Assembly (NCBI GenBank): GCA_028699085.1 | Contig: JAQVVF010000001.1 | Span: forward strand, 103,883 to 167,882 | Source of the DNA: Patescibacteria group bacterium | GTDB lineage: Bacteria > Patescibacteriota > JABMPQ01 > JAQVVF01 | Length of the DNA: 64,000 bases | Reading direction: 5' to 3' | Shown: in pieces, positions 13,385-45,950 of the stretch | Layout of the letters: every line of letters begins with the position of its first letter | Position numbering within the stretch: position 1 is the stretch's first letter | Translations under genes and position numbers: made by a program | Notes under the pieces: model-generated | Databases searched by the model: none | Seen by the model: only the letters and a program-made list of their open reading frames with translations | Told to the model about the DNA's origin: nothing

Positions 13385-13470
13385 CGGAGAGTCCCGGGCG
13401 TCCGGCTTCGCAAGGAGTCGGGCGCCCGGTTCCGGGTGAGTCAACGGCAGAAGAGTGAGGAGGTAGAGAG

Positions 13471-15892: not shown

Positions 15893-16071
15893 AACGCACA
15901 TTAGAGTTGCATTTGCAGCTCTTTTTTATTGTTAGCTATTTGACAATAATTTAGAAAAATAGTATTATCAATGGACCAAGTTTTAGATTGTACTCAAAAA
16001 TTTATTGACCAAGGGGACGGGCGCAGGTGCATATTGACAGCAGAGGAAGGCCAACCAGCACAGGAGGCCAT

Positions 16072-29389: not shown

Positions 29390-30313
29390 ATGAAAATATT
29401 AGTCACAGGCGGTGCAGGCTTTATTGGCTCGCACATCGTAGATAAATTAATTGAAGATACAAATGAGGTAATCATTATTGATAATTTATCAACTGGTAAA
29501 AAAGAAAACCTAAACAGCAAAGCAAAATTTTATCAGGCTGATATTAAGAATTATGAAGAAATTGAGAAAGTATTTGAACAAGAAAAGCCAGAATATATTT
29601 GCCATCAAGCTGCCCATGCTTCAGTTCCAGAATCAGTCAAAGATCCAATTAGTGATGCTGAAAATAATATTTTAGGATCAATCAATATCTTTAAATTAGC
29701 ATCGAAATATAATGTAAAAAAAATAGTTTTTGCTTCAACAGGTGGCGCATTATATGGCGATGCTGATGTTTTGCCAACGCCAGAAACTTATGAGGCAAAG
29801 CCTGTTTCTCCTTATGGAGTTTCAAAATTAGCTGCAGAAGAATATTTATATTGCTTCAATTTTCTAAATAAGCTAAACTATACTATTCTACGTTATGCCA
29901 ATGTTTATGGTCCAAAGCAAGATCCTTTTGGTGAAGCCGGAGTAGTCGCAATTTTTTGCCAGAAAATAGCTAATAATGATCAACCAATAATCAATGGTGA
30001 TGGCAAATGTACAAGAGATTATGTTTATGTCAAGGACATTGCAAATGCAAATTTATCAGCTTTGAAAAGCGAAAAATCGCAGAACATTTATAACGTAGGT
30101 ACAGGAATTCAAACTGACGTTAACACAATTTTTCAAAATTTAATTAAAATATCAGGACGGAATATTCCAGAAAAACATGGTCCTGCAAGAATCGGTGATC
30201 AAAGAACTAGTGCTATAGACAGCTCAAAAATTAAACAAGAATTAAATTGGGAGCCAAAAGTTAAACTGGAGGATGGATTAAAAGAAACATATGAATGGTT
30301 TAAAAATAAATAA
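29390..30313 (+). CDS. NAD-dependent sugar epimerase (UDP-glucose 4-epimerase family)
   Basis: MKILVTGGAGFIGSHIVDKL, STGGALYG, YGVSKLAAE (YxxxK). Confidence 0.8.
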   Translation: MKILVTGGAGFIGSHIVDKLIEDTNEVIIIDNLSTGKKENLNSKAKFYQADIKNYEEIEKVFEQEKPEYICHQAAHASVPESVKDPISDAENNILGSINIFKLASKYNVKKIVFASTGGALYGDADVLPTPETYEAKPVSPYGVSKLAAEEYLYCFNFLNKLNYTILRYANVYGPKQDPFGEAGVVAIFCQKIANNDQPIINGDGKCTRDYVYVKDIANANLSALKSEKSQNIYNVGTGIQTDVNTIFQNLIKISGRNIPEKHGPARIGDQRTSAIDSSKIKQELNWEPKVKLEDGLKETYEWFKNK

Positions 30314-30334
30314 ATTTAAATTAATTTTAAAATA

Positions 30335-31495
30335 ATGAATAAGTACATCTTTACATCGGAGTCAGTAACGGAGGGTCATCCTGATAAAGTCGCAGATCAA
30401 ATCTCGGATTCAATTTTAGATGAATTATTAAAACAAGATCCAGATTCTAGAGTTGGTTGCGAAACATTAGTTACGACTGGATTGGTTGTCGTTGCCGGCG
30501 AAATCACAACAAAAGCTTATGCTGATATTGCAAAAATTGCTAGAAAAACAATCAAAGAAATAGGCTATACAGAACATGATTATGGTTTTCATCATGAAGA
30601 TTGCGGAGTTATCGTAAGTTTAGACGAACAAAGTCCAGATATTGCAGTTGGCGTAAATAAAACTAAAAAGAAAAAACAAGGCGCAGGCGATCAAGGTCTG
30701 ATGTTCGGTTATGCAACAAATGAAACACCAGAATTGATGCCTTTGCCAATTATTTTAGCTCACAAGCTTTGTCAAAAATTATCTGAAGTAAGAAAAAATA
30801 AAACTCTTGATTATTTAAGACCAGATGGTAAATCAGAAGTTGCAGTTGAATATGAAGATGGCAAGCCAAAAAGAATAAATACAATCGTAATTGCAGCTCA
30901 GCATAATCCTGATATCAAATTATCTCAACTAAAAAAAGATATTATTGAAAAAGTCATTAAACCAGTTTGCGAAAATTGGTTAACAAGAAAAACTAAATTC
31001 TTTATTAATGCAACTGGAAAATTTGTAAAAGGCGGCCCTCCAGCAGATTGTGGCTTGACTGGTCGCAAAATTATTGTTGATACTTATGGCGGTCATGGCA
31101 GTCATGGTGGAGGATGTTTTTCAGGAAAAGACCCATCAAAAGTTGATCGTTCAGGCTCTTATATGGCTAGATATATTGCCAAGAATATTGTCGCATCAAA
31201 AATAGCAGATCGCTGTGAAATTCAGATCGCTTATGTCATTGGCGTTGCTGAACCAATTAGCATTTTAGTTAATACACACAATACTTCTAAAGTTAGCAAT
31301 GAACAGATTGAAAAAATAATTAGACAAGTTTTTGATTTAACTCCAGAAGGCATCATCGAAAAGCTAGATCTAAAACGTCCAATTTACAAAAAAACTGCAG
31401 CTTATGGGCATTTCGGTCGCAATGATAAAGATTTTACCTGGGAAAAGACAGATAAGGTTAAGGAGATTAAAAAGCTTGGAAGTATCTTAAAATAA
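30335..31495 (+). CDS. metK: S-adenosylmethionine synthetase
   Basis: [53 protein letters not shown] motifs. Confidence 0.92.
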
Positions 31496-31570
31496 ATTGT
31501 GAAGAAAAAAATAGTATTTATAATCGGCTTAACCAGCTTAATATTATTAGGTTTAGTTATTTATATTTAT

Positions 31571-31621
<51 letters not shown>

Positions 31622-31782
31622 CGCGTATGAAGATGATTTAATTTTCCGACCCATTTGGCAAAAAATTTTATATCCTTATCCTCGACAATGTCAATTTTAG
31701 ATATTAGAATAATAGGAGGTTAGCACAGTTAAACTAAAATTCAAATAATGCTAATTAGTGCTAGTTAGCTTAAATAAAAAAT

Positions 31783-33072
31783 ATGAAAATCGCAGTTGTC
31801 GGCACAGGATATGTAGGACTTGTCACTGGCGCTTGTCTAGCAAAAGTCGGTCACACAGTCTCTTGTGTAGATATTGATCAAGAAAAAATTAAGAAGTTAA
31901 AAAAAGGAATTATCCCAATTTACGAGCCTGGCTTAGACAAAGTTGTCAAAGAGGTTGCAAAAAAAGGCAAACTCGTTTTTGATATATCCCTAAAAAAAGT
32001 CTTGCCTGATGTTGAAGCAATATTTATTGCCGTAGGCACGCCAGCAAAAAAAGATGGTAAAGCAGATTTGCAATATGTTCATGCAGTTGCAAAAGAGATC
32101 GGCGAAAACATTAAAGACTTTAAAGTCATTATTAATAAAAGCACTGTTCCAGTTGGCACAGCAAAAGAAGTTAAGAATATTATATTAAAAACATATAAAG
32201 GAAAATTTGCTGTTGTGTCCAATCCAGAATTCCTGAAAGAAGGTTATGCAGTTACAGATTTTATGAAGCCAGACCGTATTGTTATTGGTTGTGATGATAA
32301 ACAAGCAAAAAAAATAATGCAAGAAATTTACAAGCCAGTTAAGGGTAAAAAAGTTTTTACGACAGTCCAGAGCGCAGAGATGATTAAATACGCATCTAAT
32401 GCTTTTTTGGCAACAAAAATATCTTTTATTAATGAGATTGCAAATCTTTGTGAAAAGGTTAATGCCGATGTCAAAGAAGTTTCACATGGAATGGGGCTTG
32501 ATCAAAGAATAGGCAAGAGTTTTTTAAGCGCAGGAATTGGTTATGGCGGATCATGTTTTCCAAAAGACACATCAGCATTGAATCAGATCGCAGGAACAAA
32601 AGGCTATGATTTTAGATTACTAAAAGCGGTTATTGAAGTAAATGCAAAGCAAAGACAATCAGTCATTGATAAACTTGAACAAATTTTTGGCAATTTAAAG
32701 AATAAAAGAATTGCTGTTTTGGGCCTTGCTTTCAAAAATAATACTGATGATGTTAGAGAATCAGCTGCCATTGATATCATCAGGATGTTGACTGGTGTTG
32801 GTGCAAGAGTCAAAGCTTATGATCCAAAAGCAAATGATAATGCAAAAGAGATATTGAATTCTGGTGTTAAAATTACAAATGATCCATATGAGGCAATAAA
32901 AAATGCCGATGCATTAGTCATTGCAACAGAATGGCCAGAATTCGCAAATTTAGATTTTCACAAAATTAAGAATTTATTAAAACAGCCAATCATTATTGAC
33001 GGTCGCAATTTATTAAATTCTATAATAATTAAAAAACTCGGCTTTCAGTATTATGGAATTGGCCGAGCTTAA
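31783..33072 (+). CDS. ugd: UDP-glucose 6-dehydrogenase
   Basis: MKIAVVGTGYVGLVTGACLA, GGSCFPKD catalytic Cys motif, ~430 aa. Confidence 0.9.
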   Translation: MKIAVVGTGYVGLVTGACLAKVGHTVSCVDIDQEKIKKLKKGIIPIYEPGLDKVVKEVAKKGKLVFDISLKKVLPDVEAIFIAVGTPAKKDGKADLQYVHAVAKEIGENIKDFKVIINKSTVPVGTAKEVKNIILKTYKGKFAVVSNPEFLKEGYAVTDFMKPDRIVIGCDDKQAKKIMQEIYKPVKGKKVFTTVQSAEMIKYASNAFLATKISFINEIANLCEKVNADVKEVSHGMGLDQRIGKSFLSAGIGYGGSCFPKDTSALNQIAGTKGYDFRLLKAVIEVNAKQRQSVIDKLEQIFGNLKNKRIAVLGLAFKNNTDDVRESAAIDIIRMLTGVGARVKAYDPKANDNAKEILNSGVKITNDPYEAIKNADALVIATEWPEFANLDFHKIKNLLKQPIIIDGRNLLNSIIIKKLGFQYYGIGRA

Positions 33073-33097
33073 TAATAATAATAAATTTTAAAACGAG

Positions 33098-33523
33098 CTA
33101 TTCTAGCTCGTTTTTTGATTCATCAAAATCTAAAAGCAAAAAAGAAAGTAAGGCAATCAAAACACCAGAAATCAATGAAATAAATAGACTCAATAATATT
33201 CCGAGATCAAAAATTTTTATAAAAATAATTATTGCTGCAACTAATCCAAGAAAAAAAGAAACAATTGAATATTTCCAAGAATAATTTTTGCTTTCTTTGT
33301 CTGAAATATTTTCATCATTATTTTTACCTTGGAATAAAATAAGTAAAATTCCAGAAATAATTACAACAACTAAAATATAATTTAAATTAATAAAATTGCT
33401 GACAAAATTATCAAATATTTGATCTAGCAAAAAGAAAAATAAATAGCCAATCAAAAATATGCCAAATATTTGTTGGCAAACACTGTAGAGCAAATTATTT
33501 TCTTTCAAACTCTGTCTTTCCAT
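33098..33523 (-). CDS. small membrane protein, unknown
   Basis: Four hydrophobic segments; no motif. Confidence 0.4.
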   Translation of the reverse strand: MERQSLKENNLLYSVCQQIFGIFLIGYLFFFLLDQIFDNFVSNFINLNYILVVVIISGILLILFQGKNNDENISDKESKNYSWKYSIVSFFLGLVAAIIIFIKIFDLGILLSLFISLISGVLIALLSFLLLDFDESKNELE

Positions 33524-33527
33524 ATAT

Positions 33528-35159
33528 TTATCGGCTATATTTTAAATCAATTCTATTTATTTTAATATCGCCAGCATCATTACGATTATATTGGGGGAAT
33601 TGAAGTAATAAGTTAAAATTGTTGTTTTCATCAAGAAATAAATCATTAACACTAAAATCAGCAGACGCAGTTATTATGCCATTTTTTTCATCTGGGTTTT
33701 CAAAATAATCGGAAATAATATAATTACAGCTTTCTTTATTAAATTTTACAAAATCAGAAAAATTAATTAAATTATTCGTGCTTAATGCTTGCAAGGATTC
33801 GATATTCGTAGCTATTAAATTATTAAATTCGATATTCAATGAAGCCACGGGTAAATTTATTTTTGAATAAATATTTCTATTAAATAAATATGGTTTATCA
33901 ATTTTTGTAATATCTAATTCTTTTCTCTGAAATTCTGGACCAGATTCAGTAACCATGCCTTTTTCCTTTGTTATCGTAATAGTTTGCAAAGAAGAATCGC
34001 GGAGAGCAGTGAATGTCATATTTCCACTATTAGAATATAAATCTATGTTTTTTTCAGGATCAAAAAGTTTTATTCCATCAGCGAATGCCCAGTATTTTTG
34101 TTTTGACACTAAAGAATCAAACACCATATCATCGCTTGCATCTAGAAAGATGTCATAGAGACCTTCTTCTAAATTAGGAATTTTAATACTTAAATTTTTA
34201 ATTACTGAAGCAACTTCATCGCCATTTTCATTTCCATCATCAGATATATTTTTCTCTAATATCTTTTTTTCTCCTTTATAAATAAAGATATTAAAATCGC
34301 TTTTTTCTTGCAAATTATTCAAATCTTGATAATCAAAAGCAAAATCTAAATCTTCATTTGCTATGTATGTTTTAATTTTTGTAAAACCATTAAAGGCAAA
34401 ATTGAAAGTATTTGTTTCTGAAGCAGAAGAATAATCTTTGACTTTAACAAAATCATAAAGCCCATCTATATTAAAAAAACATATTTTTTCTTCCTGCATA
34501 ATATCAGGAATGTCACTCATAAAGCTGTTGATGTCTTCATAATCATAATTCACCCAATTCTTTTTAGGATTTTTTTCCTTCAAATATTCGCTGTCTTTAT
34601 CATACATCAATGCGCAATTTTCATATTCAGCTATTGGATCAATATTGCTTTCCGATTGTAACTCCTTAACTTTTTTCTCACAGATATCATCTCCTTTCTG
34701 AAATAAAATTTTACCAGTATTTTTATCAGAAATTTTATACCAATCCAAATTATCAAAAAGTTTATTTTCTAAAACTTTTGTTATTTTTTTATAAGCAGTC
34801 TTGTATTTAAACGGACTTTTTAAGGCTATTGACGCTAAAACAAAATTCGTATTTTGATTCTCGTATTTAATTTTTGCATTTAAATTCGTAAATGTTTTAA
34901 AAACTTTAATTTTCAGTTGGGCTAAAAATCCAGTTACTCGACGGTAATTTTGACCAGTTTTTAAGTTCTTTTCTGGATTTTCAAAGCCAATAATTTCAGT
35001 TACATAAGCGGGAAGCCTATTTTTATTAAAAACTATAGACAGTTTTGTCGAGCCAAATGGACCAAAGTAGGAAAAAACAGCATAAAACAAAATTATTATA
35101 ATAATGCTAACAGAAACAATCTGCGCGATTTTTGCGTAAGAATTTAGATTTATTTTCAT
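33528..35159 (-). CDS. N-terminally membrane-anchored large extracytoplasmic protein, unknown
   Basis: Single N-terminal TM then ~500 aa Asn/Asp/Lys-rich domain. Confidence 0.5.
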   Translation of the reverse strand: MKINLNSYAKIAQIVSVSIIIIILFYAVFSYFGPFGSTKLSIVFNKNRLPAYVTEIIGFENPEKNLKTGQNYRRVTGFLAQLKIKVFKTFTNLNAKIKYENQNTNFVLASIALKSPFKYKTAYKKITKVLENKLFDNLDWYKISDKNTGKILFQKGDDICEKKVKELQSESNIDPIAEYENCALMYDKDSEYLKEKNPKKNWVNYDYEDINSFMSDIPDIMQEEKICFFNIDGLYDFVKVKDYSSASETNTFNFAFNGFTKIKTYIANEDLDFAFDYQDLNNLQEKSDFNIFIYKGEKKILEKNISDDGNENGDEVASVIKNLSIKIPNLEEGLYDIFLDASDDMVFDSLVSKQKYWAFADGIKLFDPEKNIDLYSNSGNMTFTALRDSSLQTITITKEKGMVTESGPEFQRKELDITKIDKPYLFNRNIYSKINLPVASLNIEFNNLIATNIESLQALSTNNLINFSDFVKFNKESCNYIISDYFENPDEKNGIITASADFSVNDLFLDENNNFNLLLQFPQYNRNDAGDIKINRIDLKYSR

Positions 35160-35282
35160 ATAATTTAATACATTATATATTCTACAACAAGAAAATAAAA
35201 ATGTAAAAACTTGACAAGTGGATAATCTTTTGTTACAGTATTATGAAGCTAAAATGCTTCAATAACAGAAGGAGGGAGAGAA

Positions 35283-36377
35283 ATGAGATCGCACATTACA
35301 AAATTATTTTTGTTGTCTTCAGTTTTTATTGCAAGCTCTGTGTATGCTGAAGAGCCTGAAAAGGTTCCGTCTCATCCTGATTTTTCGATCGTTTTGCTTG
35401 CTGGCAATGGTCAGAAGGCTGATTTGCCAGATGCTGCAATTGAAATTTTGATTGCCAAGTTTGCAGGAAGCAGCTTGAATCTGAGTCTGGCTGGAAAGGA
35501 AATCTTCGGTGTAATGTCTGATGAAGAAATTAGAACTTGTTTTGCAACTGATGGTTGCGTTCGCAATGTCTGCATTACCAAGCAGATGGGTAGGATGCTT
35601 TATGGGACAATCATTCAGGAAAAAGGCAAAGCAGTCAAGTCTAAGCAGGAAGGCAAGAAGCCAAAAAAGAAGGTCAAAAGTGCTAAGCCTGCCAAGAAAT
35701 CAACTACTTTGCTTTCCATTGAGTTGACATTGTTTGACGCAATCAATAACAAGATTGATACGAGTTGGACATGCAAAAAATGTCCACAAGAAGAGCTTTA
35801 TGAAAAGACAATTCCTGAAATTGCCGATACTGCAATCAGCATTATGGCCAAAAACCCGCAGATTTGGTCCGAAAGGAAACCAAGCTTGCGTGCTGATGAA
35901 GCAGCCCTCGGCCTTCAGCCACAGGAAATTGAAGTTCTGCCTCCACCTCCAGTCGCATCTGCAGAAGAGGCAAAACAACCGGAAGTTGAAGTAAGGAAAG
36001 AACCTGTTGTCAAGGTCGAGAAAAAGATCGAAGTCAAGAAGCCTGGGCTTGACTGGCATTCTTGGACTGGAATTGCCTTGATGAGCATTGGCGCTGGTAT
36101 GGTTGGAACAGGTGCATATTTCGGCGTAGATGCCAACAATGCCCGTTCCAATTATGAAGCAACAAATGTCCAGCGACAAGCAATGGAATATATGGACCAG
36201 TCAGAATCTTCTGCTGGTAAAGCAAATATCATGTACAGTGCTGGTGGTGCTATCTTGCTAACTGGAGCAACAATTTTCTTGCTGGATTATTTTGAAATCA
36301 TTCACAAGAGCACAACTGCTCCGCAAGCATTGATCATTTCGCAACCGAGCGGACTCGTCTTGAACCTTTCTTTCTAA
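35283..36377 (+). CDS. secreted protein with Lys-rich linker and C-terminal TM anchor, unknown; elevated GC
   Basis: GGAGGGAGAG RBS; signal peptide; KKPKKKVKSAKPAKK tract; C-terminal hydrophobic segments. Confidence 0.5.
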   Translation: MRSHITKLFLLSSVFIASSVYAEEPEKVPSHPDFSIVLLAGNGQKADLPDAAIEILIAKFAGSSLNLSLAGKEIFGVMSDEEIRTCFATDGCVRNVCITKQMGRMLYGTIIQEKGKAVKSKQEGKKPKKKVKSAKPAKKSTTLLSIELTLFDAINNKIDTSWTCKKCPQEELYEKTIPEIADTAISIMAKNPQIWSERKPSLRADEAALGLQPQEIEVLPPPPVASAEEAKQPEVEVRKEPVVKVEKKIEVKKPGLDWHSWTGIALMSIGAGMVGTGAYFGVDANNARSNYEATNVQRQAMEYMDQSESSAGKANIMYSAGGAILLTGATIFLLDYFEIIHKSTTAPQALIISQPSGLVLNLSF

Positions 36378-36395
36378 ACGCTAATTAATGGCGTT
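36367..36395 (+). terminator. rho-independent terminator
   Basis: aacgctaattaatggcgttttttt. Confidence 0.6.
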
Positions 36396-36656
36396 TTTTT
36401 ATTTACATTGTTATTCAATATATTTATGCATAAATTTGATATTAACCATTTTTTTATTAAAAAACAAACTTTTTTGATAAGTAGGTCCATAAAGCTTGTT
36501 TTTTTATGCTCAAAATTGACAAAAACAACATAAATAGCTACAATAAGCCATTTTTATCTTGCCAAATTATTATTAATATGCTATATTAATTTGAACAGAA
36601 AACCCAAGGTTTCGGCTGTACTGACCGAACCTTTCATAGCAAAGAGGAGGAGAGAG

Positions 36657-39521
36657 ATGAAGCCAAGAAACATGGTTGTCTTTTTGTTTTGTTGTGTGAT
36701 TTTGAGTGGCTGTCTCAAGCCGAACGAAGATTTTTCGAAGAATCTGTGCGATGAAGATGTGCGTTGTTCTGATGGATTTACCTGTATCTGCAACATGGAA
36801 AATCATACCAAGATTTGCGTCAGTGAGTCTGATCTTCCTGAGAACGCTGTTTATGCCAGCAAGGAGACGATCTGCATGATCGAATCCGATGCCGGAGTTG
36901 ATGTCGGAACTGATGTTGAAGCTGATGGCAATGTGCCTGATGCTGAAACTGATGTCCAGACTGATGCTTCGTCTGATGCAGAACAAGATGGAGGCTCGGA
37001 TCTTTCGCCTGACAATGGAACCGATTTGGCTCCTGACTCTGGTGAAGATATCCCTTGTATTCCGTCTACTGAAATCTGCGACCTCAAGGACAACGACTGC
37101 GACGGCGACACTGATGAAGATTTCAACAATCTGAATCAGGCCTGCTCGTCTGGCTTGGGTGAGTGTGAAGCTTCTGGCGTCTACGTTTGTAGCGTCGATG
37201 GCAAGAACACTACTTGCAACGCAGTCGCAGGAATTGCTGTTGCTGAAGAATGTGATGAACTGGACAATGATTGTGACGGCGTTACTGACGAAGAGTTGGT
37301 TGGCTGTTGCGATGAAGACGATGTCCAGGAGTGTGGATCTGATGTTGGTGAATGCCAGAAGGGTCAAATGACTTGTCAGGAAGACGGCAGTTGGGGACAG
37401 TGCGAAAACGCTGTTGCTCCGATTGTTGATCTTTGCGATGACAAGGACAATGATTGCGATGGCAACACCGACGAGGATTTCATTAATCTGAATTCTGCTT
37501 GTCAGATTGGTCAGGGCGCTTGTCTTTCGCATGGCGTTTTTGCTTGTAGCGAAGACAGCCTCACGACCGAATGCAACGCTGAAATCATCCAGCCTTCCGA
37601 AGAGGTATGCGATCAGCAGGATAACAACTGCGATGGCAATACTGATGAAGATTTGGCTGGCTGTTGCATTCCCGATGATCAGGTTGTTTGTGGCTCCAAT
37701 GTTGGCGAATGCCGGCAGGGCCTCAAGACTTGTTCAGCGGAAGGCGTCTGGAGCGAATGTGTCGGCGAAGTCAAGGTTGCAGAAGAGCTTTGTGATAGCA
37801 AGGACAACAACTGCGACGGCTTCATCGATGAAAAGTTCGTTAATCTTCATGCACAGTGCCAGATCGGAATTGGCGAATGCGTATCGACAGGCACAATGAT
37901 TTGCGCAATTGATCAGCAATCGCTGTCTTGCAACGCAGAAGTCAAAGTCGGAAGCGACGAGACCTGTGACAACAAGGACAATGACTGTGATGGTAATACC
38001 GATGAAGAGCTGACGCGTGAATGCGGCTCTGATGTCGGCGAATGCCAGAAGGGCGTGCAGTCTTGTTCCGCTGGTGGCTGGCTTGTCTGCGAAGGCGAGA
38101 TTCAGTCGAGCGACGAGATCTGTGACGGCCAAGATAACAACTGCGACAACAATACTGACGAAGGTTTCAACATTGGCGATCAGTGCTTCAACGGACTTGG
38201 CGAATGCCGGACCGAAGGCGTGATTGCTTGTGTTGATGAAAATCAGAGTGCTTGCAATGCAGTTGCCGGCTCAGCAAGCGAAGAGCTTTGCGATGGCCTG
38301 GATAACGATTGCGACGATTTGATCGATGAAGAGCTGGAAGACTGTTGTGAGCCTGGCACAATTTCTGAGTGCGGTATTGATACTGGGGAATGTGTGAAGG
38401 GAACTTCCACGTGCCTGGCAGACCGCTCTTGGGACTGGTGTTTTGGAGCAACTGGACCTTCCATGGAAGAATGCGATGGCAAGGATAATGACTGCGATGG
38501 CGAAAACGACAATGATCTGATTGGCTGTTGCTCTCCGGGTGTTTCTCGCAATTGCGGTATCGATGAAGGCGAATGCCGAATCGGAACGCAGACTTGCTGG
38601 GAAAATCGGGAATGGGGCGCATGCCAGAATCAGATCTCGCCGACTGATGAGATCTGTGATGGTTTGGACAACAACTGCGATGGTTTCACTGATGAGGACT
38701 TTGACCTCACCTTTGATACCAACAACTGCGGTAGTTGTAACCACATTTGCGGAAATCAGGGGACAGCGAGTTCAATCTGCGAAGCTGGTGAATGCATTCT
38801 GCAATGCAGTCGCTTCCGCTTCGATGTGAATGCTGATCCTGCTGATGGATGTGAATGTGAAGTCACCAACTGCGGAGTGGAAATCTGCGATCAGGTTGAC
38901 AATGACTGCGATGGCGCTGTCGACGAAGACTGCCAGTCGCTGGTCATGTACCTGTCATTTGACAACCATTTCAATGATGGTTCAACGAATGCTAACAATG
39001 CTGTCAACCACGGCGCCACTTTCACTGCGGATGCAGTTTGTGGCCAGGCAGCATCGTTCGACGGAGTCGACGATTATGCTGAAGTGGATAGCGTGAGTAT
39101 GAATAGTATTGGTAATGAGTTTACGTTCTTCGCAACAGTCAAGGTGCGAAGTTTCGAGCTCAATGACAGAATTTTCAATAAATATCTAAACAAGCCAAGT
39201 ATTGGAATTGATTTTTCCGATAATGTTGGAAACTGCTGGAATTTTATGTTGTCTTCAAACAACATTGGTTGTAACAAGGCAGTAGCTGTCCAGACATGGA
39301 TTACCATTGCCGGAAAATATAGTAATGGTAGATTCATTTCTTATGTAAATGGTGAAAAAGATGTAGACGTAAATACTGCCAACATGCTAGGTACAAAAAT
39401 GTACATCGGTGCATCTAGCAATTCTGGAACAAAGAGTGATATGATTATTGATCAACTTGTTTTTTACAACAAGGCATTTTCGGAAGAAGAAATCGTACAT
39501 TATTTTAAAATCCTAAAGTAG
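36657..39521 (+). CDS. 955-aa cysteine-rich repeat lipoprotein: 11 x CD.xDN[DN]CDGxTDE (MopE/putative-metal-binding-like) repeats plus C-terminal LamG (Laminin_G_3/concanavalin-like) domain
   Basis: AAGAGGAGG RBS then ATG 36657; lipobox ILSGC; alternating repeat modules; C-terminal ...AASFDGVDDYAEVDSV...LVFYNKAFSEEEIVHYF typical of LamG_3. Moderately GC-rich (~50%). Confidence 0.75.
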   Translation: MKPRNMVVFLFCCVILSGCLKPNEDFSKNLCDEDVRCSDGFTCICNMENHTKICVSESDLPENAVYASKETICMIESDAGVDVGTDVEADGNVPDAETDVQTDASSDAEQDGGSDLSPDNGTDLAPDSGEDIPCIPSTEICDLKDNDCDGDTDEDFNNLNQACSSGLGECEASGVYVCSVDGKNTTCNAVAGIAVAEECDELDNDCDGVTDEELVGCCDEDDVQECGSDVGECQKGQMTCQEDGSWGQCENAVAPIVDLCDDKDNDCDGNTDEDFINLNSACQIGQGACLSHGVFACSEDSLTTECNAEIIQPSEEVCDQQDNNCDGNTDEDLAGCCIPDDQVVCGSNVGECRQGLKTCSAEGVWSECVGEVKVAEELCDSKDNNCDGFIDEKFVNLHAQCQIGIGECVSTGTMICAIDQQSLSCNAEVKVGSDETCDNKDNDCDGNTDEELTRECGSDVGECQKGVQSCSAGGWLVCEGEIQSSDEICDGQDNNCDNNTDEGFNIGDQCFNGLGECRTEGVIACVDENQSACNAVAGSASEELCDGLDNDCDDLIDEELEDCCEPGTISECGIDTGECVKGTSTCLADRSWDWCFGATGPSMEECDGKDNDCDGENDNDLIGCCSPGVSRNCGIDEGECRIGTQTCWENREWGACQNQISPTDEICDGLDNNCDGFTDEDFDLTFDTNNCGSCNHICGNQGTASSICEAGECILQCSRFRFDVNADPADGCECEVTNCGVEICDQVDNDCDGAVDEDCQSLVMYLSFDNHFNDGSTNANNAVNHGATFTADAVCGQAASFDGVDDYAEVDSVSMNSIGNEFTFFATVKVRSFELNDRIFNKYLNKPSIGIDFSDNVGNCWNFMLSSNNIGCNKAVAVQTWITIAGKYSNGRFISYVNGEKDVDVNTANMLGTKMYIGASSNSGTKSDMIIDQLVFYNKAFSEEEIVHYFKILK

Positions 39522-39530
39522 CACATATAT

Positions 39531-39592
39531 AGACCTTCTAAAAGGTCTTTTTTTTATAACAAAAAACCCTTCAGTATTAGGAAGGGTTTTAA
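39531..39592. terminator. pair of terminator hairpins between convergent genes (second is bidirectional)
   Basis: agaccttctaaaaggtcttttttttt and aaaaacccttc-agtatta-ggaagggtttta. Confidence 0.65.
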
Positions 39593-39608
39593 ATGGACTA
39601 GTTATAAA

Positions 39609-40337
39609 CTAAAAAACGCTTACATAAAATCCAGTTATATTTACACCTACACCAGTTCTATCATAAAAATGCAACTCTACAGAATTCCCTGTTGGCAACG
39701 TTTGTACTTCGGCAAAAGCTGTAGCATCGGCTTTAATTGGCAATGCTTGAAAATACCTATTTGCAACTGAAGAACCAAAATCTACAATGTATACGCCTGT
39801 TGAATCGCCATATGTAACGGTAATAGTAGAATTTGAAAGATAGTTAAAGGAATTTGTAAGAGTTGGGGTTGTAGGGGAAGAAGTATTTACATTAGCAGCT
39901 GCCTTTATAATTCCATTTATCGACATATCAATCTTGTCAGAAGTTACAGCATCATCAGCAATCTTATCAGAAGTTACAGCGCCAGCTCCCAATTTATCAG
40001 CAGTAACAGAACCAGTTCCTAATTTTGAATCAGTCACAACTCCAGTTCCAAGATTATCAGCAGAAACAATATTAGTTCCTTGTAAAATTCCACCTACTAA
40101 AACATTGCCTTGAACTTTCAAATGATCTTTTACATAAACTTTTTTTCCTTTGACAGGATTTCTGATAAAACCTTTTACTAGCAATTGTCCTTTATTGCTA
40201 TTTGTTCCAACTGTTGATGTCTTCTTTACTAATATGGAATCAGTTGTCCATACTGATGCTGCGCTTGCGAAAGCAGTTGTTACTAAAAACGCGCCTCCTA
40301 AAACAAGTGACAACACCAAAAATCTTTTTTGCTTCAT
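39609..40337 (-). CDS. secreted protein with five tandem decapeptide repeats (.VT.DKLG.G), tail-fibre/adhesin-like
   Basis: Signal peptide; IVSADNLGTGV-VTDSKLGTGS-VTADKLGAGA-VTSDKIADDA-VTSDKIDMS. Confidence 0.6.
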   Translation of the reverse strand: MKQKRFLVLSLVLGGAFLVTTAFASAASVWTTDSILVKKTSTVGTNSNKGQLLVKGFIRNPVKGKKVYVKDHLKVQGNVLVGGILQGTNIVSADNLGTGVVTDSKLGTGSVTADKLGAGAVTSDKIADDAVTSDKIDMSINGIIKAAANVNTSSPTTPTLTNSFNYLSNSTITVTYGDSTGVYIVDFGSSVANRYFQALPIKADATAFAEVQTLPTGNSVELHFYDRTGVGVNITGFYVSVF

Positions 40338-40408
40338 TTTGTTTTTCCTTGTCCTCCAAAACTATTTTTCGTAAAAAATAGCTAAGAAGAAAATTAATTA
40401 TTTATAAA

Positions 40409-41059
40409 TTAAGATTTAAGCTTAATAGTTGAAAAAGCTTTTATTTTGCAAAGCTTTTCATATTCCATATCATTAAGTATTCGATGACCTTTTAGAAAAT
40501 CAACTAAAACAATAATTTTCTCATCCAGTTTCCTAATAATTAAAATTAAATCTCCTTTTGTAGAATCAATCTTATTTATTAAAGATTCTTCAAAATTTGC
40601 AATTTTAAGATTTAAATCATTCTTAACAATTTCAAGATCTTTCTTAGAAGCTGTCTCTGAAAAACCTTTTGCAACCATTAATGCAAGTTCAGAAATTTTT
40701 TTGTCTAATTTTTGATCAAAACTTTTTTCTTGATTCTTAAAACCAGCATTTATCTTTTCATCCTGCATTTTAAAACCAGCGTTTATCTTTTCATCCTGCA
40801 TTTTAAAACCAGCGTTTATCTTTTCATCCTGCATTTTAAAACCAGCGTTTATCTTTTCATCCTGCATTTTAAAACCAGTATTCATCTTCTCATCCTGTTC
40901 TTTAAAACCAGCAATCATCTTTTTTTCTAAACTAAAAAAGCGCATGTCATTTTTCTTGAAACCATCATCCATTTTCACAGATAACCTTTCAACTTTTGTG
41001 CCAAGTTTTTCAATCAATTTGACTAAGTCTTTAATCGTAATTTCTTTTTTTGTTTTCAT
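40409..41059 (-). CDS. repeat protein containing perfect 11-aa (33-nt) tandem repeats FKMQDEKINAG, coiled-coil-like
   Basis: Five near-identical 33-nt units in 40735-40930 maintained in-frame. Confidence 0.6.
   Translation of the reverse strand: MKTKKEITIKDLVKLIEKLGTKVERLSVKMDDGFKKNDMRFFSLEKKMIAGFKEQDEKMNTGFKMQDEKINAGFKMQDEKINAGFKMQDEKINAGFKMQDEKINAGFKNQEKSFDQKLDKKISELALMVAKGFSETASKKDLEIVKNDLNLKIANFEESLINKIDSTKGDLILIIRKLDEKIIVLVDFLKGHRILNDMEYEKLCKIKAFSTIKLKS
40735..40930. repeat. 33-nt tandem repeat array (about 5.5 units) inside CDS 40409..41059
   Basis: ttttaaaaccagcgtttatcttttcatcctgca repeated head-to-tail, central copies identical. Confidence 0.85.
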
Positions 41060-41215
41060 TACTAAAAATCAAATTTAACAATAAAATTATAACACATTAT
41101 TTATTTGTCAACAAATTTGTTGTTAATAAATCAAACAACACTTGACAAATATCAATAATTAAAGTACTCTAATTTAAAGCACCTTGCACATAAAAGGAAA
41201 ACAAGGAGGCAAGAA

Positions 41216-42193
41216 ATGAGAAAACAAGCAATCTTGATCATTGCGATTTCATTTTTTCTAGCATCATGTGGAAGAATGTTGATTTATTCTCCTGAAAGAA
41301 TAAAAGCTTATACTTCTGGAAATCCTGGAAAGCCGTATAAAACTTTGGGAAAAGTTGAAGCAACCTATATTCCTTCTGGATTTTCAAAGAAGGTAGCTCC
41401 TGGATTAAAAAGCTATGAAAGAAATCCAGAAAAATACGGCAATGCAGGTACGCACGTCAGATCATATTCTTTAGAAGCGCCACCAGATTTGAAGCCAGAC
41501 TATCAACAAGCAACAAGACTGATGCTCGACCGAGCTTATGATCAGTATGGTGACATTTTGGGAGCAGTCATCAATGTCCGCTATTCAACATCTGTTAAAT
41601 ATTATGCTCAAGGCGGAACTGTTGATACTAATTTGCAAAGAATGCATACAAAAGCAAGAGGTACAGCAATCTGTTTTGTCAATCGTCAGAATCAATGCAT
41701 TATTTATGATGACTCTGAATCAAATACAAAAAAAACTGCCCAAAAAGCTGCTTCATCTGATAATGATTCTTTTATCCAAGTAATAGACGATGAAGATGAA
41801 AGAAAGCCAGCAGTTAGAATCGCTAAACCAGAGAAAGCACTTGTGCCTAACAGCTTGCTTGGTTATCCTTTAAAAGAAGCAAGAACAGATAGCCATTATC
41901 CCAACATTAAAGAATTCAAGAAAGCATACGAATATAACTACGGTAAATTTTTTATCAGAATCATTGAATTCAAAACTGTAATTGGAGCAACGAATTATTT
42001 ATCATTTTTGAGCCAGCAGCCAAAAGCAAAGAAGATCAATACTGGCTTTTTTTGGACAACAGTTCAAGAAGGTTGCAATAAATGCGCAAACTTATCTTTT
42101 CTATTTGATCAAACAAAAGTTATCGCTATTTTTCCTGAAGATCAAACACTTAGTACTGCAGTAAAAGTTTCTCATGCTTTAGAAAAAAAATAA
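41216..42193 (+). CDS. lipoprotein, unknown
   Basis: AAGGAGG RBS; lipobox FFLASC. Confidence 0.55.
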   Translation: MRKQAILIIAISFFLASCGRMLIYSPERIKAYTSGNPGKPYKTLGKVEATYIPSGFSKKVAPGLKSYERNPEKYGNAGTHVRSYSLEAPPDLKPDYQQATRLMLDRAYDQYGDILGAVINVRYSTSVKYYAQGGTVDTNLQRMHTKARGTAICFVNRQNQCIIYDDSESNTKKTAQKAASSDNDSFIQVIDDEDERKPAVRIAKPEKALVPNSLLGYPLKEARTDSHYPNIKEFKKAYEYNYGKFFIRIIEFKTVIGATNYLSFLSQQPKAKKINTGFFWTTVQEGCNKCANLSFLFDQTKVIAIFPEDQTLSTAVKVSHALEKK

Positions 42194-42258
42194 TGTCCTT
42201 TTTTTGAGAAAACAAAAACCGAAAGAAATCTTTCGGCTTTTTTATTTTTGACAAATTT

Positions 42259-42924
42259 TTAAAGAGTTTCAAATAATACTTCTTCAGATAATGCGCCTTT
42301 ATCAGATTTTTTCTTTGTGTTTTGAGCCTGTACTTTAACTTTGTAAACAGTATTAGAATCTAATCCTGATAATGTTAAAGTTTTGCCAGTAACATAATTT
42401 GTTGATATCATCTGGTTATTTCCATCAGTTAATTTTACGATATATTTAAGATTTGATCCTCGGCAAGCATTCCAAGATACAACAGCAGAATTTTCTGTAA
42501 TATCAGTAACTAAAACATTTTTTACTTTTGATGGTTTTGTGCGAAATGTTACATATGAGCTCCATTCACTTGCCAAACTTCCTTTTATGGTTCTAACTGA
42601 TGCATGATAAGTTTTATTAGATAATAACCATTTGCTAGCAACTGTTTTATAATTCATGCTTGATCTAAGATAGCCAATTGTTTTATCATCTTTATCAGCT
42701 AATTTCATTTCGTATTTTGTTGCGTCAGTTATCTCGTCCCAGATAATGTGAGCAGTTGTTGATCTGCGATCTAACACAGACAAATTTGTTGGTACTTCAA
42801 TTGATGTATCAACAGTTACATTCAACGGCTTGTTCTTTTTAACAGTTTTTGCTGATGCATTTAATGCAAATGACAATGAAACAAGAAAACACATTGCCAT
42901 TACAGCGCATAAAATTTTCTTCAT
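42259..42924 (-). CDS. secreted protein with two fibronectin type III-like domains
   Basis: Signal peptide; PTNLSVLDRRSTTAHIIWDEITDATKYEMKL and VKNVLVTDITENSAVVSWNA...YIVKL FN3 patterns. Confidence 0.6.
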   Translation of the reverse strand: MKKILCAVMAMCFLVSLSFALNASAKTVKKNKPLNVTVDTSIEVPTNLSVLDRRSTTAHIIWDEITDATKYEMKLADKDDKTIGYLRSSMNYKTVASKWLLSNKTYHASVRTIKGSLASEWSSYVTFRTKPSKVKNVLVTDITENSAVVSWNACRGSNLKYIVKLTDGNNQMISTNYVTGKTLTLSGLDSNTVYKVKVQAQNTKKKSDKGALSEEVLFETL

Positions 42925-43008
42925 GCTTTTTAAAAATTACTTGTTAGTAATTATATATTAACATATTTTTAAAAATAAAAAAACCGAAAGATTACTTTCG
43001 GTATATTT

Positions 43009-44106
43009 TTACTCCTTTTCAAGCTCCTGATTAATATATCCAGCACCATCACCGCCTGTGAAAACACGAGGCACATTGTCCCAATCCCAATCATAATAAA
43101 AACTTTTGTAACCAGATTTTCGAATTTCTAATCGGAACTGTCGATCAGGTAAATTATTTAAAGTTAATTCGCCAGGATCTCCAGATTTTTCAGATTTCAA
43201 CTCGCCAAGTTTGTTATTATTGACAAATACTTCCGAGCCTTCTTGACCGACAAAAAAAATTTTCCTAACTTTCTCAACAGTTCTCTTTCTAGCCACATAC
43301 TTTTTTAATGTAGGGTTGTAGATATGAAGAACCATAATTAATGAACCGGCAGACGAACTATCAGTAGTCAACAAAGCAGGAAAGCTGCCATCAGTATTTG
43401 CAGGAACATCTTTGATTGTATCTGGATTATCAAAAATTATCGTCGGAGTATTATCAACAATTGACCAAAGATTTGCATTACAGATTGGTCCATTTCCTTG
43501 GCAAGTATCAGTTACTAATAATTCATTGATTCCATCGCCATTCAAATCTTTTTCTTCGCGAACACCGCACTCATCCATAATTGCTTGTTCAGCACAATTC
43601 ATGTGCTTGCATGTGCAAGCCGCTAAAGCAGTTTCTTTCAGCAATCTTTCTAAACTGGTCTTCTGGCTAGTCTTAAAATCCTCCGATTCCGGACAATCAT
43701 CGTCGATCTTTGTTTCGCGCAGTTTGAATCCCTCATCAAAAATTTCATAAGACAAGGACAAACATTCCTGGTAAATACGAACTCCAGGTTTGCGGCCCGC
43801 ATTAGAGTCTCTGTAATTGCCGTCAAGTGCAGAAGCAAAATCTTTGTATGCTTTTTTAGTGCAACTATTCTGAACTGAAACTCTTACTTTGATTTCTACT
43901 TTTTCATTTTTGCTAAGCATATTCAATCGGCTGCTATCAGAAACTACAAAAGTGCAATTCAGATTTCCGGATGAGAATTCTTTAGATGCAGCTTCATAAA
44001 AAAGTTTGATATCTCGCTGAATCTGTTCATCCTTGATTTCTTTTGTGCATCCATAAAAGAAATGTAAACATACAAATGCAAAGACAAACATTGTTCTGCG
44101 TTTCAT
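43009..44106 (-). CDS. lipoprotein with Cys-rich extracytoplasmic domain, unknown
   Basis: GGAGG RBS; lipobox FFYGC. Confidence 0.5.
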   Translation of the reverse strand: MKRRTMFVFAFVCLHFFYGCTKEIKDEQIQRDIKLFYEAASKEFSSGNLNCTFVVSDSSRLNMLSKNEKVEIKVRVSVQNSCTKKAYKDFASALDGNYRDSNAGRKPGVRIYQECLSLSYEIFDEGFKLRETKIDDDCPESEDFKTSQKTSLERLLKETALAACTCKHMNCAEQAIMDECGVREEKDLNGDGINELLVTDTCQGNGPICNANLWSIVDNTPTIIFDNPDTIKDVPANTDGSFPALLTTDSSSAGSLIMVLHIYNPTLKKYVARKRTVEKVRKIFFVGQEGSEVFVNNNKLGELKSEKSGDPGELTLNNLPDRQFRLEIRKSGYKSFYYDWDWDNVPRVFTGGDGAGYINQELEKE

Positions 44107-44236
44107 GGCGTCCTCCTGGTCTCGCGTCCCTTCCCAAAAGGAAGTAAAAATGTAAAAAGAACAACAATATAATTTACTTTAAATCATAATTATTGTCAAA
44201 TAAAAAAACCGAAATAAATTCGGCTTAGAACAAAAA

Positions 44237-45847
44237 TTATAAACAAATTCTTAACGGTACCCTTCCAAAAGATTGATCAAAGCTTTTGCATGTTGTTCCA
44301 ACAGGACATTCGGAAAATAAATTGCAATTATCACATGACACTCCCAAATCTTGATCTCGATCTTTTTCTTCAAAACAAGTTTCAGTGCAAATTCCAGAGA
44401 TGCAAAACAAATCAAAATCACAATCAGAACTGACAACGCAATTTTTTCCAATTCCATGATTTGGCAAATACATTTCATGAGTCGCTTTTTTCACAGCTTC
44501 CAAAACATTAATTCTTCTCCAATTATGAGAAACACCATCAGGATAAGTAACAAGAATTTCGGTTGCTGATTCATAGATAATCTTTCTAATTTCATCAGGA
44601 TTTAATTCCGGCCTGATTTGTTTTAGCAAGCCAGCCAGTCCGGAAACTAAAGGCGCTGCAAAAGAAGTACCTTCACCAATTGCAAATGAATTATCAATTC
44701 CTAATAATCTTAAATCCTTACCAGGTGCAGCCAAAGTCAAGATATCAGGATCATCATTTTGAGAAAAACCAGACCAATTAGTTCGATTCTCAAGTCCATA
44801 TTCATCGTAACCAGTTGCGCCAACAGAAATTACATTAGAAAAAGCAGAAGGAAAATGATTTGTAGCATCAATACCAGTATTGCCAGAAGATGCAACCATA
44901 ACAACATTATGCGCATAGGCATAATTTACTGCAATTTCAAGAAAACCTATGTCAGAAGGATTGACAAAAACCTGAAAACTCATATTTATTACTGAAGCAT
45001 CCTTTTTCACAGCATAAATTATTCCGGCAACTACATTTCTTAAAAAAGTTTTATTGTCAAATTTATTCGAATCAGGAAATAGTTTGAGTGCAATCAGATT
45101 TGCATTAAAAGCAATTCCACTCAATCCGAAGCCATTATTTTGAGCAACTATTACTCCAGCAGTAGCAGTTCCATGTCCTTTATCATCACTATCAAGATTT
45201 TCAACAGAAACATCATTATCAATATCGCCAAAATCAAAAGATTCATAATCTAATCCAGAAAACTCTTGATGATCTAAATCAAAACCATTATCTAGAACAG
45301 CAATTTTTACTTGATGAAGAGTAATGCTATTTTGTTCAATAAAATGGTAAGCTTCGGCGAGCTTGATTATCTCAAATCCCCATAAACCATTTTCATTGCT
45401 ACTTTCAATGTCCAAACTTTCAAGCTTAGCAACATAATTCTTTTCCGCCAATTCAACAATTCCACTAGCAAGCAAGGTGCTGATACTTTCTTCAATTTCT
45501 TCAGCAGAATTAAATTCGAACTTTAATTCAAAAATATTCACATCTGGAATAAAAGCTGAAATTTTTGCGCCGATCTCATCCAAAGTTATTTGAATATTAG
45601 ACAAACTAACATTATCCTTAAATTTAACGAGTGCAGTATTTCCAGAAATAATATTGCCCTCAATATCTAATGAGACATTTTCAATATCAATGGGCGACAA
45701 TAAAAAATCATTTTCAAATTCGGAAATTTCAGTTACGCAATATCTTTGTCTGCATAATTCTTTTGCTTTTTCAAAATATGAAGAGTTTTCATTGTTAGAG
45801 CAGCCAAAAAGTAGAATACAGAATAAAGCAATTCTTTTTACATACAT
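44237..45847 (-). CDS. subtilisin-like serine protease (S8) lipoprotein with C-terminal Cys-rich domain
   Basis: Start set at MYVKRIALFCILLFGC (AAGGAGG RBS at 45850-45856, rc); catalytic triad contexts VLDNGFDLDH, HGTATAGVI, GTSFAAPLVSG. Confidence 0.8.
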   Translation of the reverse strand: MYVKRIALFCILLFGCSNNENSSYFEKAKELCRQRYCVTEISEFENDFLLSPIDIENVSLDIEGNIISGNTALVKFKDNVSLSNIQITLDEIGAKISAFIPDVNIFELKFEFNSAEEIEESISTLLASGIVELAEKNYVAKLESLDIESSNENGLWGFEIIKLAEAYHFIEQNSITLHQVKIAVLDNGFDLDHQEFSGLDYESFDFGDIDNDVSVENLDSDDKGHGTATAGVIVAQNNGFGLSGIAFNANLIALKLFPDSNKFDNKTFLRNVVAGIIYAVKKDASVINMSFQVFVNPSDIGFLEIAVNYAYAHNVVMVASSGNTGIDATNHFPSAFSNVISVGATGYDEYGLENRTNWSGFSQNDDPDILTLAAPGKDLRLLGIDNSFAIGEGTSFAAPLVSGLAGLLKQIRPELNPDEIRKIIYESATEILVTYPDGVSHNWRRINVLEAVKKATHEMYLPNHGIGKNCVVSSDCDFDLFCISGICTETCFEEKDRDQDLGVSCDNCNLFSECPVGTTCKSFDQSFGRVPLRICL

Positions 45848-45950
45848 TCTGCCTCCTTGTTTTTTGTAATTTTTAAAGAACATGTCAAATTGACAACTCT
45901 ATTTTATAATAATAAAATAACTATGTAAAAAGCCTTCTTTTGGCTTAATT

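Follow-up and report, generated by a model that had tools for sequence, protein, structure and literature searches.

The stretch of DNA analysed here, which we call the window, comprises 64,000 nucleotides of a Patescibacteria group bacterium (assembly GCA_028699085.1, contig JAQVVF010000001.1, positions 103,883 to 167,882) and carries on its forward strand a gene for a cysteine- and aspartate-rich, MopE-related lipoprotein that ends in a laminin G (LamG) domain. The distal part of this domain, together with the 3' end of a convergent neighbouring gene, is replaced as one block between otherwise near-identical strains. The open reading frame (ORF) extends over 36591..39521 (+), and initiation at the ATG at 36657 yields 954 amino acids (aa) plus stop. 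The original prediction, made from the letters alone, was right to call the product a lipoprotein (lipobox LSGC) and gave its length as 955 aa. The start is backed by a Shine-Dalgarno sequence read 6 nt 5' of the ATG (AGGAGG, 36645..36650, +), by a sigma-70-like promoter with 11 of 12 consensus matches (TTGACA-17-TACAAT, 36516..36544, +), and by the N-termini of the orthologs, which begin at the same Met. The coding sequence, stop codon included, occupies 36657..39521 (+), as defined by the ORF, Pfam and orthologs. Because the promoter-like site lies 3' of the terminator-like hairpin of the upstream gene (36376-36396), the gene appears to be a separate transcription unit. A terminator-like hairpin with a T-run, found by hairpin scan, follows the stop codon (39531..39548, +). 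The protein contains 89 Cys (9.3%), 12.6% Asp and 7 His; an NCBIfam scan of its 954 residues returned no family.

More than 3,800 relatives are present in the databases. The closest are P0001 (89% identity; JGI metagenomes), P0002 (74%; Logan assemblies), P0004 (68%; a 645-kb contig, listed at NCBI as 'MopE-related protein [Patescibacteria group bacterium]'), P0003 (65%; a 654-kb contig of an 'uncultured Candidatus Saccharibacteria bacterium') and P0009 (47%; ENA assembly), and all five lie in the same gene order as the window gene. The shared order runs metK, UDP-glucose dehydrogenase, a protein of about 140 aa (-), one of 543 aa (-), one of about 365 aa (+), the LamG gene (+) and a protein of about 240 aa (-), and goes on in the closer genomes through an fn3 protein and a subtilase. 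This synteny recurs in at least five Patescibacteria genomes (L001, L002, L004, L007 and L011), down to 47% identity. Proteins annotated 'MopE-related' or assigned to PF11617 in Myxococcota, Planctomycetota, Patescibacteria and others have the same CDxxDNDCDGxTDE motif and the same super-repeat of two module types, A and B. The complete anchor-stalk-LamG_3 architecture is shared with P0009, P0078, P0099, P0102 and P0106, whereas in most PF11617 homologs, which have a greater length of 1200-1650 aa, other heads or a MYXO-CTERM anchor are found. The window protein is thus a further member of a catalogued family, already annotated as 'MopE-related protein', and not a new kind of system. The literature searched held no paper on this family in Patescibacteria. 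The point of interest is the replaceable cassette, not the already catalogued kind of protein that bears it.

The N-terminal sequence MKPRNMVVFLFCCVILSGC contains the lipobox L-S-G-C. The segment MKPRNMVVFLFCCVILSG|C has the positive n-region, hydrophobic h-region and lipobox of a lipoprotein signal peptide (aa 1-19, 36657..36713, +) and fits the criterion [LVI][ASTVI][GAS]C. A Cys-terminated lipobox is kept among the orthologs (ISGC, LNGC, LAGC, FVGC), and lipidation of Cys19 is predicted. The anchor is followed by an N-terminal module with six Cys, delimited by their positions (aa 20-73, 36714..36875, +); P0009 and a Lectin_C paralog of L001 likewise have a related Cys-rich segment after the lipobox. 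Next comes an acidic spacer of low complexity, whose 60 residues include 14 Asp and 5 Glu (aa 74-133, 36876..37055, +); among orthologs it varies in sequence (43% identity to P0003) and in length, being longer in L004. The public call for P0004, of 790 aa, is a gene-calling artefact. The ORF at L004 9416-12373 is intact: its 985 aa include a separate lipobox (FVGC) and an extended acidic spacer bearing DAEADAEVGT repeats, and a real truncation of this ortholog was rejected.

Beyond the spacer lies a disulfide-rich stalk of about 630 residues (aa 134-759, 37056..38933, +), delimited by Pfam, pattern matching, autocorrelation and a hidden Markov model (HMM). The pattern C-x(2,3)-D-[ND]-[DN]-C-[DN] matches exactly 11 times, at aa 141, 199, 260, 318, 379, 437, 489, 545, 606, 667 and 744; it is absent from all other frames and genes of the 64-kb window. 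Pfam PF11617 (Cu-binding_MopE, a putative metal-binding motif) matches in seven stretches with 115.5 bits (cut-off 27, E=1.2e-33), and the 11 repeats described originally were recovered. Over residues 134-670 the autocorrelations of Cys (0.34) and Asp (0.35) both peak at a lag of 119 aa, with secondary peaks for Asp at 58 and 61, which bears out the claimed periodicity as well as the alternation of two module types. The claimed number of five super-repeats of about 100 aa does not hold: the modules run A B A B A b A B B X Y, giving four A-B super-repeats, each 110-119 aa long, followed by an extra B, by a CGxC-type module and by a last motif fused directly to LamG. On the plus strand the modules are A1 (37077-37250), B1 (37251-37433), A2 (37434-37607), B2 (37608-37790), A3 (37791-37964), b (37965-38120), A4 (38121-38288), B3 (38289-38471), B4 (38472-38654), X (38655-38885) and Y (38886-38933). 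Modules of the same type are 43-55% identical in protein and those of different type 33-48%; in DNA, identities are 52-67%. Tandem Repeats Finder detected no array of the protein repeat and returned a single 12-bp repeat of 3.3 copies in the linker-coding region. Given these DNA identities and the lack of an array, the stalk repeats must be ancient and not products of recent duplication. Each repeat position has its own ortholog in the related genomes.

An HMM built from the four super-repeats found 235 near-full copies in the window protein and 120 homologs, which identifies the A-B unit as the building block of the family. The heads fused to it across these homologs include LamG, C-type lectin, FGE-sulfatase/CLec, fibrinogen-C, VWA, PKD, SRCR and others, a variety in keeping with a general-purpose stalk for the display of a binding domain. 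How does such a unit fold? An AlphaFold2 (AF2) model of one super-repeat (aa 255-389, alignment of 40 sequences) reached a predicted local distance difference test score (pLDDT) of 85 and is made up of short beta-hairpins and coil. Foldseek gave no significant fold match to it (best E about 1), and a profile of 40 A-B super-repeats had no match at E<=10 among PDB sequences, MopE included. Judged from model and profile, the A-B unit has no detectable relative among solved structures. The B modules contain an adjacent Cys-Cys pair (aa 217-218, 336-337, 563-564 and 624-625), both members of which are jointly gone from the otherwise alignable six-Cys b module (aa 437-488); many homologs show C-x-C there. 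This joint loss hints that the two cysteines of a pair bond to each other. A separate observation concerns the stalk DNA of the window and L002, where patches of 83-89% identity (37400-37600 and 37800-37900) lie within long stretches of 100%; this mosaic indicates frequent recombination inside the stalk as well as at the tip.

Which metal might the repeats bind? The original prediction proposed calcium or copper. The motif CDxxDNDCDGxTDE has as its core D-N-D-C-D-G-x-T-D-E, a calcium-type Dx[DN]xDG loop with a further acidic ligand downstream. Nine of the 11 copies match Dx[DN]xDG exactly, the other two having N or D for G, and D at +9 is present in 11 of 11. Shuffling the sequence 2000 times gave 0.26 copies on average and never more than 3. 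Ca2+ is favoured by the ligand-type residues that the motif conserves, namely Asp, Asn and Glu. Dx[DN]xDG binds Ca2+ in many unrelated folds (motif definition in PMC3123361), and the core of the teneurin C-rich region, C-x-D-x-x-D-N-D-G-D-G-x-x-D, has been aligned with the PF11617 consensus (PMC3278476). In the crystal structure of the teneurin-4 C-rich region, three Ca2+ ions are held by acidic residues in a manner resembling thrombospondin type-3 (TSP3) and low-density lipoprotein receptor class A (LDLR-A) modules, and calcium stabilises the protein (PMC9058538). From the Dx[DN]xDG loops and this precedent, calcium-dependent stiffening of the stalk, with Ca2+ bound by the motif loops, is the most likely reading of the motif. 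Loops of the teneurin type would, by analogy, be the likely working principle of the stalk. The likeness to the eukaryotic teneurin, TSP3 and LDLR-A modules lies in disulfide-clamped acidic Ca2+ loops and is confined to the motif level. The Cys spacing of the window protein differs, each loop being followed by a beta-hairpin module with four or six further Cys, and Foldseek found no significant fold match between the stalk model and teneurin-2 (E=3.3).

A copper-scavenging protein like methanotroph MopE/CorA is an alternative suggested by the name of the matched Pfam family, Cu-binding_MopE, and we regard it as extremely unlikely. The Cu(I) site of MopE is formed by His132, His203 and kynurenine-130, and calcium stabilises MopE* during purification (PMC3423442); PF11617 spans just a small, non-specific part of MopE (PMC6189053). 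In the window protein none of the 11 motif copies contains His or Trp, the string W-x-H is absent, and the seven His of the whole protein stand at positions 50, 292, 398, 696, 771, 785 and 948. On this residue inventory nothing like the His/His/kynurenine site of MopE is seen in or beside the motif, and the conserved ligand-type residues of the motif, as said above, point to Ca2+. What the window protein has in common with MopE/CorA (PDB 2VOV) is the short acidic, Cys-flanked motif that defines PF11617 and nothing else: the copper site lies outside what the window protein conserves, and overall fold and architecture look unrelated. Of the proposed metals, then, the calcium-type loop is retained at motif level and copper is dropped.

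The C-terminal head had been predicted to be Laminin_G_3, and this proved correct. PF13385 matches residues 802-946 with 47.7 bits (cut-off 27.6, E=2.4e-12), covering profile positions 1-150 of 151. An AF2 model of residues 664-954 built from 10 homologous sequences (m884e81347ee5) has a pLDDT of 78 overall and 80-93 in the LamG part, which is all-beta plus two short helices and forms a ConA-like jelly roll. With this model Foldseek returned 439 PDB matches at E<=0.001, the top 50 of which are ConA-like lectin or carbohydrate-binding domains. The best match is the arabinan-binding domain 4 of AbnA (5hon_A, E=1.2e-11, TMt 0.75), and the lectin domain of trypanosome trans-sialidase and the HCN domain of clostridial (botulinum) neurotoxin are also near the top. 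In a phmmer search of PDB sequences the sole match to the LamG part was weak (4qvs, an S-layer domain protein, E=0.065). The whole-profile HMM match and the jelly-roll model are what the window head shares with the solved ConA-like examples (AbnA domain 4, trans-sialidase, HCN); it differs in having 12-18% sequence identity to them and in the allelic hypervariability of its distal two-thirds. LamG/ConA-like domains commonly bind carbohydrates or receptors. The head is likely a ligand-binding, probably glycan-binding, domain.

The head is divided into two parts that behave differently. Its N-terminal third (aa 760-822, 38934..39122, +) is 89-97% identical among five orthologs, and the distal two-thirds (aa 823-954, 39123..39518, +) are 32% identical to P0001. 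Facing the LamG gene tail to tail is the gene of a 242-aa secreted protein (39609..40337, -), with its own terminator-like hairpin (39563..39590, -; hairpin scan). The N-terminal ~125 aa of this protein are conserved and include tail-fibre-like VTxDKLGxGA repeats. Hypervariability is confined to its C-terminal ~115 aa (39609-39958, -), which vary in concert with the LamG tip. The 242-aa protein has no Pfam match. It matches PHROG tail-fibre families (E=6e-7 and 8e-7) in the repeat segment, aa 72-182, only, and in tblastn searches a phage tail fibre and host specificity protein J (E=1e-5 to 7e-4, 26-31% query cover).

Comparison with L002 delimits the exchanged block. The two DNAs are 96% identical over 30299-39125 and again over 39959-46926, many 100-nt bins being 100% identical; between these segments, over 39126-39958, BLASTN detects no similarity. 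Along the bins, identity falls from 100% to 40-60% in the cassette and returns to 100% at 40000. In all three genome comparisons (L002, L001 and L004) the BLASTN alignment breaks at 39125-39150 and resumes at 39862-39964. The cassette defined by these breaks and bins (39126..39958, ~830 bp) lies across the convergent 3' ends of the two genes and is assigned to neither strand; it contains the last ~130 aa of LamG, an 87-bp spacer, two terminator-like hairpins and the C-terminal ~115 aa of the 242-aa protein.

The proteins give the same picture. Window and P0001 are 99% identical over aa 1-133, 97% over aa 134-759 and 97% over aa 760-822, and 32% identical over aa 823-954; for P0001 and P0002 the corresponding values are 85%, 79%, 92% and 84%. 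The tree of the tips therefore contradicts that of the stalks: the P0001 tip is 84% identical to that of P0002 but 32% to that of the window, and the stalks are reversed. Once two further alleles from short contigs are added, three strains (window, P0001 and L014) have stalks that are 96-99% identical and tips that are 32-37% identical, and at least six tip types exist. In the neighbouring protein of five strains, the N-terminal 115 aa are 97-100% identical and the C-terminal domains 27-51%, some of the latter being nearest to more distant lineages (P0260, for example, to P0262, at 60%). LamG tip and neighbour C-terminal domain change together. All tip alleles retain the LamG core residues and a conserved C-terminal EEI.HYF motif, and tip synonymous divergence (dS) is saturated. 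From the kept core and the saturated dS we read the tips as old alleles reshuffled by recombination in conserved flanks, and not as products of local hypermutation. A word-based search with the tip only in 5.8 billion proteins gave nothing at E<=0.001; in an exhaustive HMMER search of 1.84 billion representative proteins the window tip reached at most 37% identity, and a donor of the cassette was not found. Locus scans of genome contigs and of metagenome contigs with the neighbour protein yielded only one locus each, both known alleles. Assemblies fragment at this locus into contigs of 1-3 kb.

Could a diversity-generating retroelement (DGR) diversify the tip in place? In the Candidate Phyla Radiation (CPR), targets of DGRs are frequent and usually lie at C-terminal lectin-type folds (PMC8144416, PMC11661182), and several MopE-related homologs bear the FGE-sulfatase/CLec domain PF03781. 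The window, however, holds no second copy of 38901-40400 that could serve as template repeat within its 64 kb, and the differences between alleles, which comprise indels and about 65% of positions, extend over the entire beta-sandwich and are not those of adenine-templated codons. The replaced block also takes in the spacer and the 3' end of the neighbouring gene, and no reverse transcriptase is present among the called genes of the syntenic loci (most window ORFs lay outside that scan). We therefore hold a DGR to be extremely unlikely. A C-terminus of the polymorphic toxin or contact-dependent inhibition (CDI) type was likewise rejected, since all alleles keep the LamG core and the adjacent gene encodes a convergent secreted protein with a signal peptide. 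The hypervariable gene reported from Gracilibacteria (10.1101/595074) was considered as the same phenomenon and rejected, being a PTD nucleotide repeat. The closer parallel is with tip-swapping phage tail fibres and cassette-variable surface antigens, which share a conserved proximal part, an exchangeable distal domain and sharp recombination boundaries. Unlike a phage tail fibre, the window gene lies at a chromosomal locus of a cellular organism, and its cassette reaches over the 3' ends of two genes in convergent orientation; the scanned ORFs of the neighbourhood included no phage genes. Within the literature searched, neither the two-gene, tail-to-tail hypervariable cassette nor the maintained third-position composition appears to have been described.

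That composition is unusual. The GC content of the whole gene is 0.475; it reaches 0.51 within the repeats and falls to 0.34 over the final 131 codons. At third codon positions the GC content (GC3) is 0.475 against a background of about 0.22 (0.18-0.30 in low-GC genes of the window). The GC excess noted in the original prediction is thus real. Amino acid composition and background codon usage would lead to a GC of 0.386 and a GC3 of 0.235; with 0.475 observed for both, about half of the GC excess is synonymous. TTA is used for none of 41 Leu codons (background 44%) and ATA for none of 49 Ile codons (25%), and AAG makes up 79% of Lys codons (20%) and CAG 83% of Gln codons (21%). The 364-aa upstream gene has a GC3 of 0.40 (0.43 in L001), the downstream gene one of 0.19.

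Does this mark a foreign gene? Recent acquisition from a GC-rich donor such as Myxococcota would account for the GC3 of 0.475 and for TTA, ATA and AAG usage unlike the background; MopE-related proteins are abundant in Myxococcota, and the window contains another GC-rich patch at 12.3-14.2 kb. Yet the gene occupies the same syntenic position in all five genomes named above, as far down as 47% identity, and all syntenic orthologs share a GC3 of 0.42-0.49, against flanks of 0.17-0.30, despite a dS of about 1.2 between window and L001 across the locus. Synonymous third-position changes were polarised with L001 as outgroup. The window branch shows 30 GC>AT and 30 AT>GC, the L007 branch 41 and 30, whereas about 78% GC>AT would be expected of a gene relaxing to background (binomial p=1.8e-6 and 1e-4, respectively); polarisation was by parsimony, which is imperfect at such divergence, though the direction is clear. 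From the GC3 shared at this dS and the balanced changes, we conclude that the high GC3 is maintained and is not a decaying foreign signature. The foreign origin suggested earlier is not borne out as a recent event, and we consider it very unlikely; a transfer long ago, in the ancestor of the clade, would leave the present composition unexplained. Candidate causes of the GC3 are selection for high expression, with the strong promoter and Shine-Dalgarno sequence in mind, or biased gene conversion, the locus being prone to recombination. The window ORFs that were scanned included no recognisable genes for ribosomal proteins or similar genes of reference.

Taken together, the modular stalk-plus-head design, the exchangeable tip and a neighbourhood of surface and envelope genes lead us to favour, with somewhat better than even confidence, a surface lipoprotein for adhesion or partner recognition, composed of a calcium-stiffened stalk and a lectin-like head with exchangeable tip specificity. 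Lipidated Cys19 would anchor the protein to the outside of the cytoplasmic membrane, followed by the six-Cys module and the 60-residue acidic spacer. The stalk of ~630 residues would then consist of 11 disulfide-bonded modules, each opening with a Cys-clamped acidic loop of the Dx[DN]xDG type, and Ca2+ in these loops may stiffen it into a rod, as in thrombospondin type-3, LDLR-A and teneurin C-rich modules. At its distal end the LamG/ConA-like beta-sandwich would serve as ligand-binding head. Homologous recombination in the conserved flanks would exchange the ~830-bp cassette between strains, and near-clonal strains could thereby present different, anciently diverged recognition surfaces. An episymbiotic Patescibacteria cell may in this way adhere to or recognise its partner, specificity being set by the swappable tip. 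The genes around it encode proteins with signal-peptide- or lipoprotein-like N-termini, an fn3 protein, a subtilase and enzymes of envelope-polysaccharide synthesis. The hypervariable tip cassette lends indirect support to the recognition role proposed originally for a 'giant' adhesin, an epithet that 954 aa do not justify. Some points weigh against this adhesin model: the variability of the tip fits a switching of hosts but would equally fit escape from phages or a match to variable glycans of the cell itself, the putative binding of Ca2+ has the motif as its sole basis, and no experimentally characterised member of the family was found in the literature searched.

The head might instead organise the envelope, binding the cell's own cell-wall or capsular polysaccharide or an S-layer, with alleles that track the self glycan. 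The gene does form part of an extensive locus for envelope polysaccharides (GT4/GT1 transferases, epimerases, a Wzy-like ligase, an ABC-2 exporter), a glycosyltransferase block at ~46927-48053 also diverges between the near-identical window and L002, and the best PDB sequence match of the LamG part, weak as it is, is the S-layer domain protein mentioned above. An N-terminal lipid anchor and a head placed far out on a long stalk suit outward reach, however, and not self-attachment, and the co-varying neighbour resembles segments of phage tail fibres; we judge self-attachment unlikely. Another alternative is escape from enemies, in which exposed head and neighbour are receptors of phages or other antagonists and negative frequency-dependent selection keeps ancient alleles. 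Discrete, deeply diverged alleles with saturated tip dS, shuffled among near-clonal backgrounds, and the fragmentation of assemblies at the locus are what it would predict. Such allele shuffling is typical of many bacterial surface-antigen loci. No phage sequence matches the LamG head, however, and the conserved anchor-stalk-lectin design would be left unexplained. This explanation seems to us quite improbable as the main one, can coexist with a role in adhesion, and would mean that tip variation says little on the protein's own ligand.

Returning to recognition, a more specific and more tentative proposal is that the LamG tip and the tail-fibre-like C-terminal domain jointly form the host-recognition cassette of an ultra-small episymbiont, swapped by homologous recombination, and, as a separate matter, that the GC3 of ~0.5 of the stalk gene is actively maintained, be it by biased gene conversion at this hot spot of recombination or by selection on expression. 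If this possibility is true, host range would be reassorted much as phages swap the tips of their tail fibres. For host recognition by CPR episymbionts, the main factor characterised is type IV pili (PMC11623550). The locus offers a concrete candidate: a surface lectin on a probable calcium-stiffened stalk, with at least six deeply diverged alleles of the binding surface on a background that is otherwise near-clonal, and a co-varying tail-fibre-like partner. Should allele type correlate with host taxon, it would provide a host-range marker in metagenomes. The A-B module of 'MopE-related' proteins is moreover widespread and its copper-binding name misleading; thousands of proteins would gain an annotation from its structure combined with an analysis of metals.

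The remaining genes of the window place the locus in context. Upstream of the LamG gene, and conserved beside it in the syntenic genomes, a 364-aa secreted or membrane protein is encoded (35283..36377, +), with a signal peptide, a K/E/P-rich middle, a hydrophobic C-terminal region and no significant family match. Because it shares the raised GC3 and the conserved adjacency, it may be a functional partner of the LamG lipoprotein. In L001 (8541-9824) and L011 (6729-7844) a paralog lies between the two genes, directly upstream of the LamG gene; the encoded protein combines a lipobox with an N-terminal Cys-rich segment, an acidic spacer and two A-B super-repeats, and its head is a C-type lectin (PF00059). 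Its GC3 of 0.27-0.33 is much nearer the background than that of the LamG gene. The Lectin_C paralog is absent from the window, without remnant. Since the immediate neighbours have signal-peptide-like or lipoprotein-like N-termini, the locus looks like a cluster of surface proteins. The window as a whole, at ~30% GC, is dominated by the envelope-polysaccharide genes listed above.

Several further observations were made in passing. Between the window (~46927-48053) and L002 (20203-22315), strains that are ~96% identical, lies the second block without DNA similarity; it covers a GT4/GT1 glycosyltransferase, and L002 has a GT4 and a GT2 where the window passes straight to the ABC-2 exporter, which suggests, from gene content, strain-specific surface glycans. 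A 216-aa protein without family match (40409-41059, -) contains tandem 11-aa NAGFKMQDEKI repeats, and orthologs of 163, 194, 205 and 206 aa suggest that the number of repeats may vary. Finally, the GC-rich patch at 12344-14199 comprises two adjacent genes of GC 0.60-0.67 and GC3 0.84-0.86 in a genome of 30% GC, next to tRNA-Leu(TAA) (14485-14568), and neither has a Pfam match. One encodes 346 aa, with a central region that by eye resembles the low-GC genes at 15083-15892 and 16027-17331; the product of the other is a lipoprotein of 242 aa that combines a (GE)n spacer with a Cys-rich domain. The junction of low and high GC at this patch is reproduced in a separate Logan contig, L018, of the same sample.

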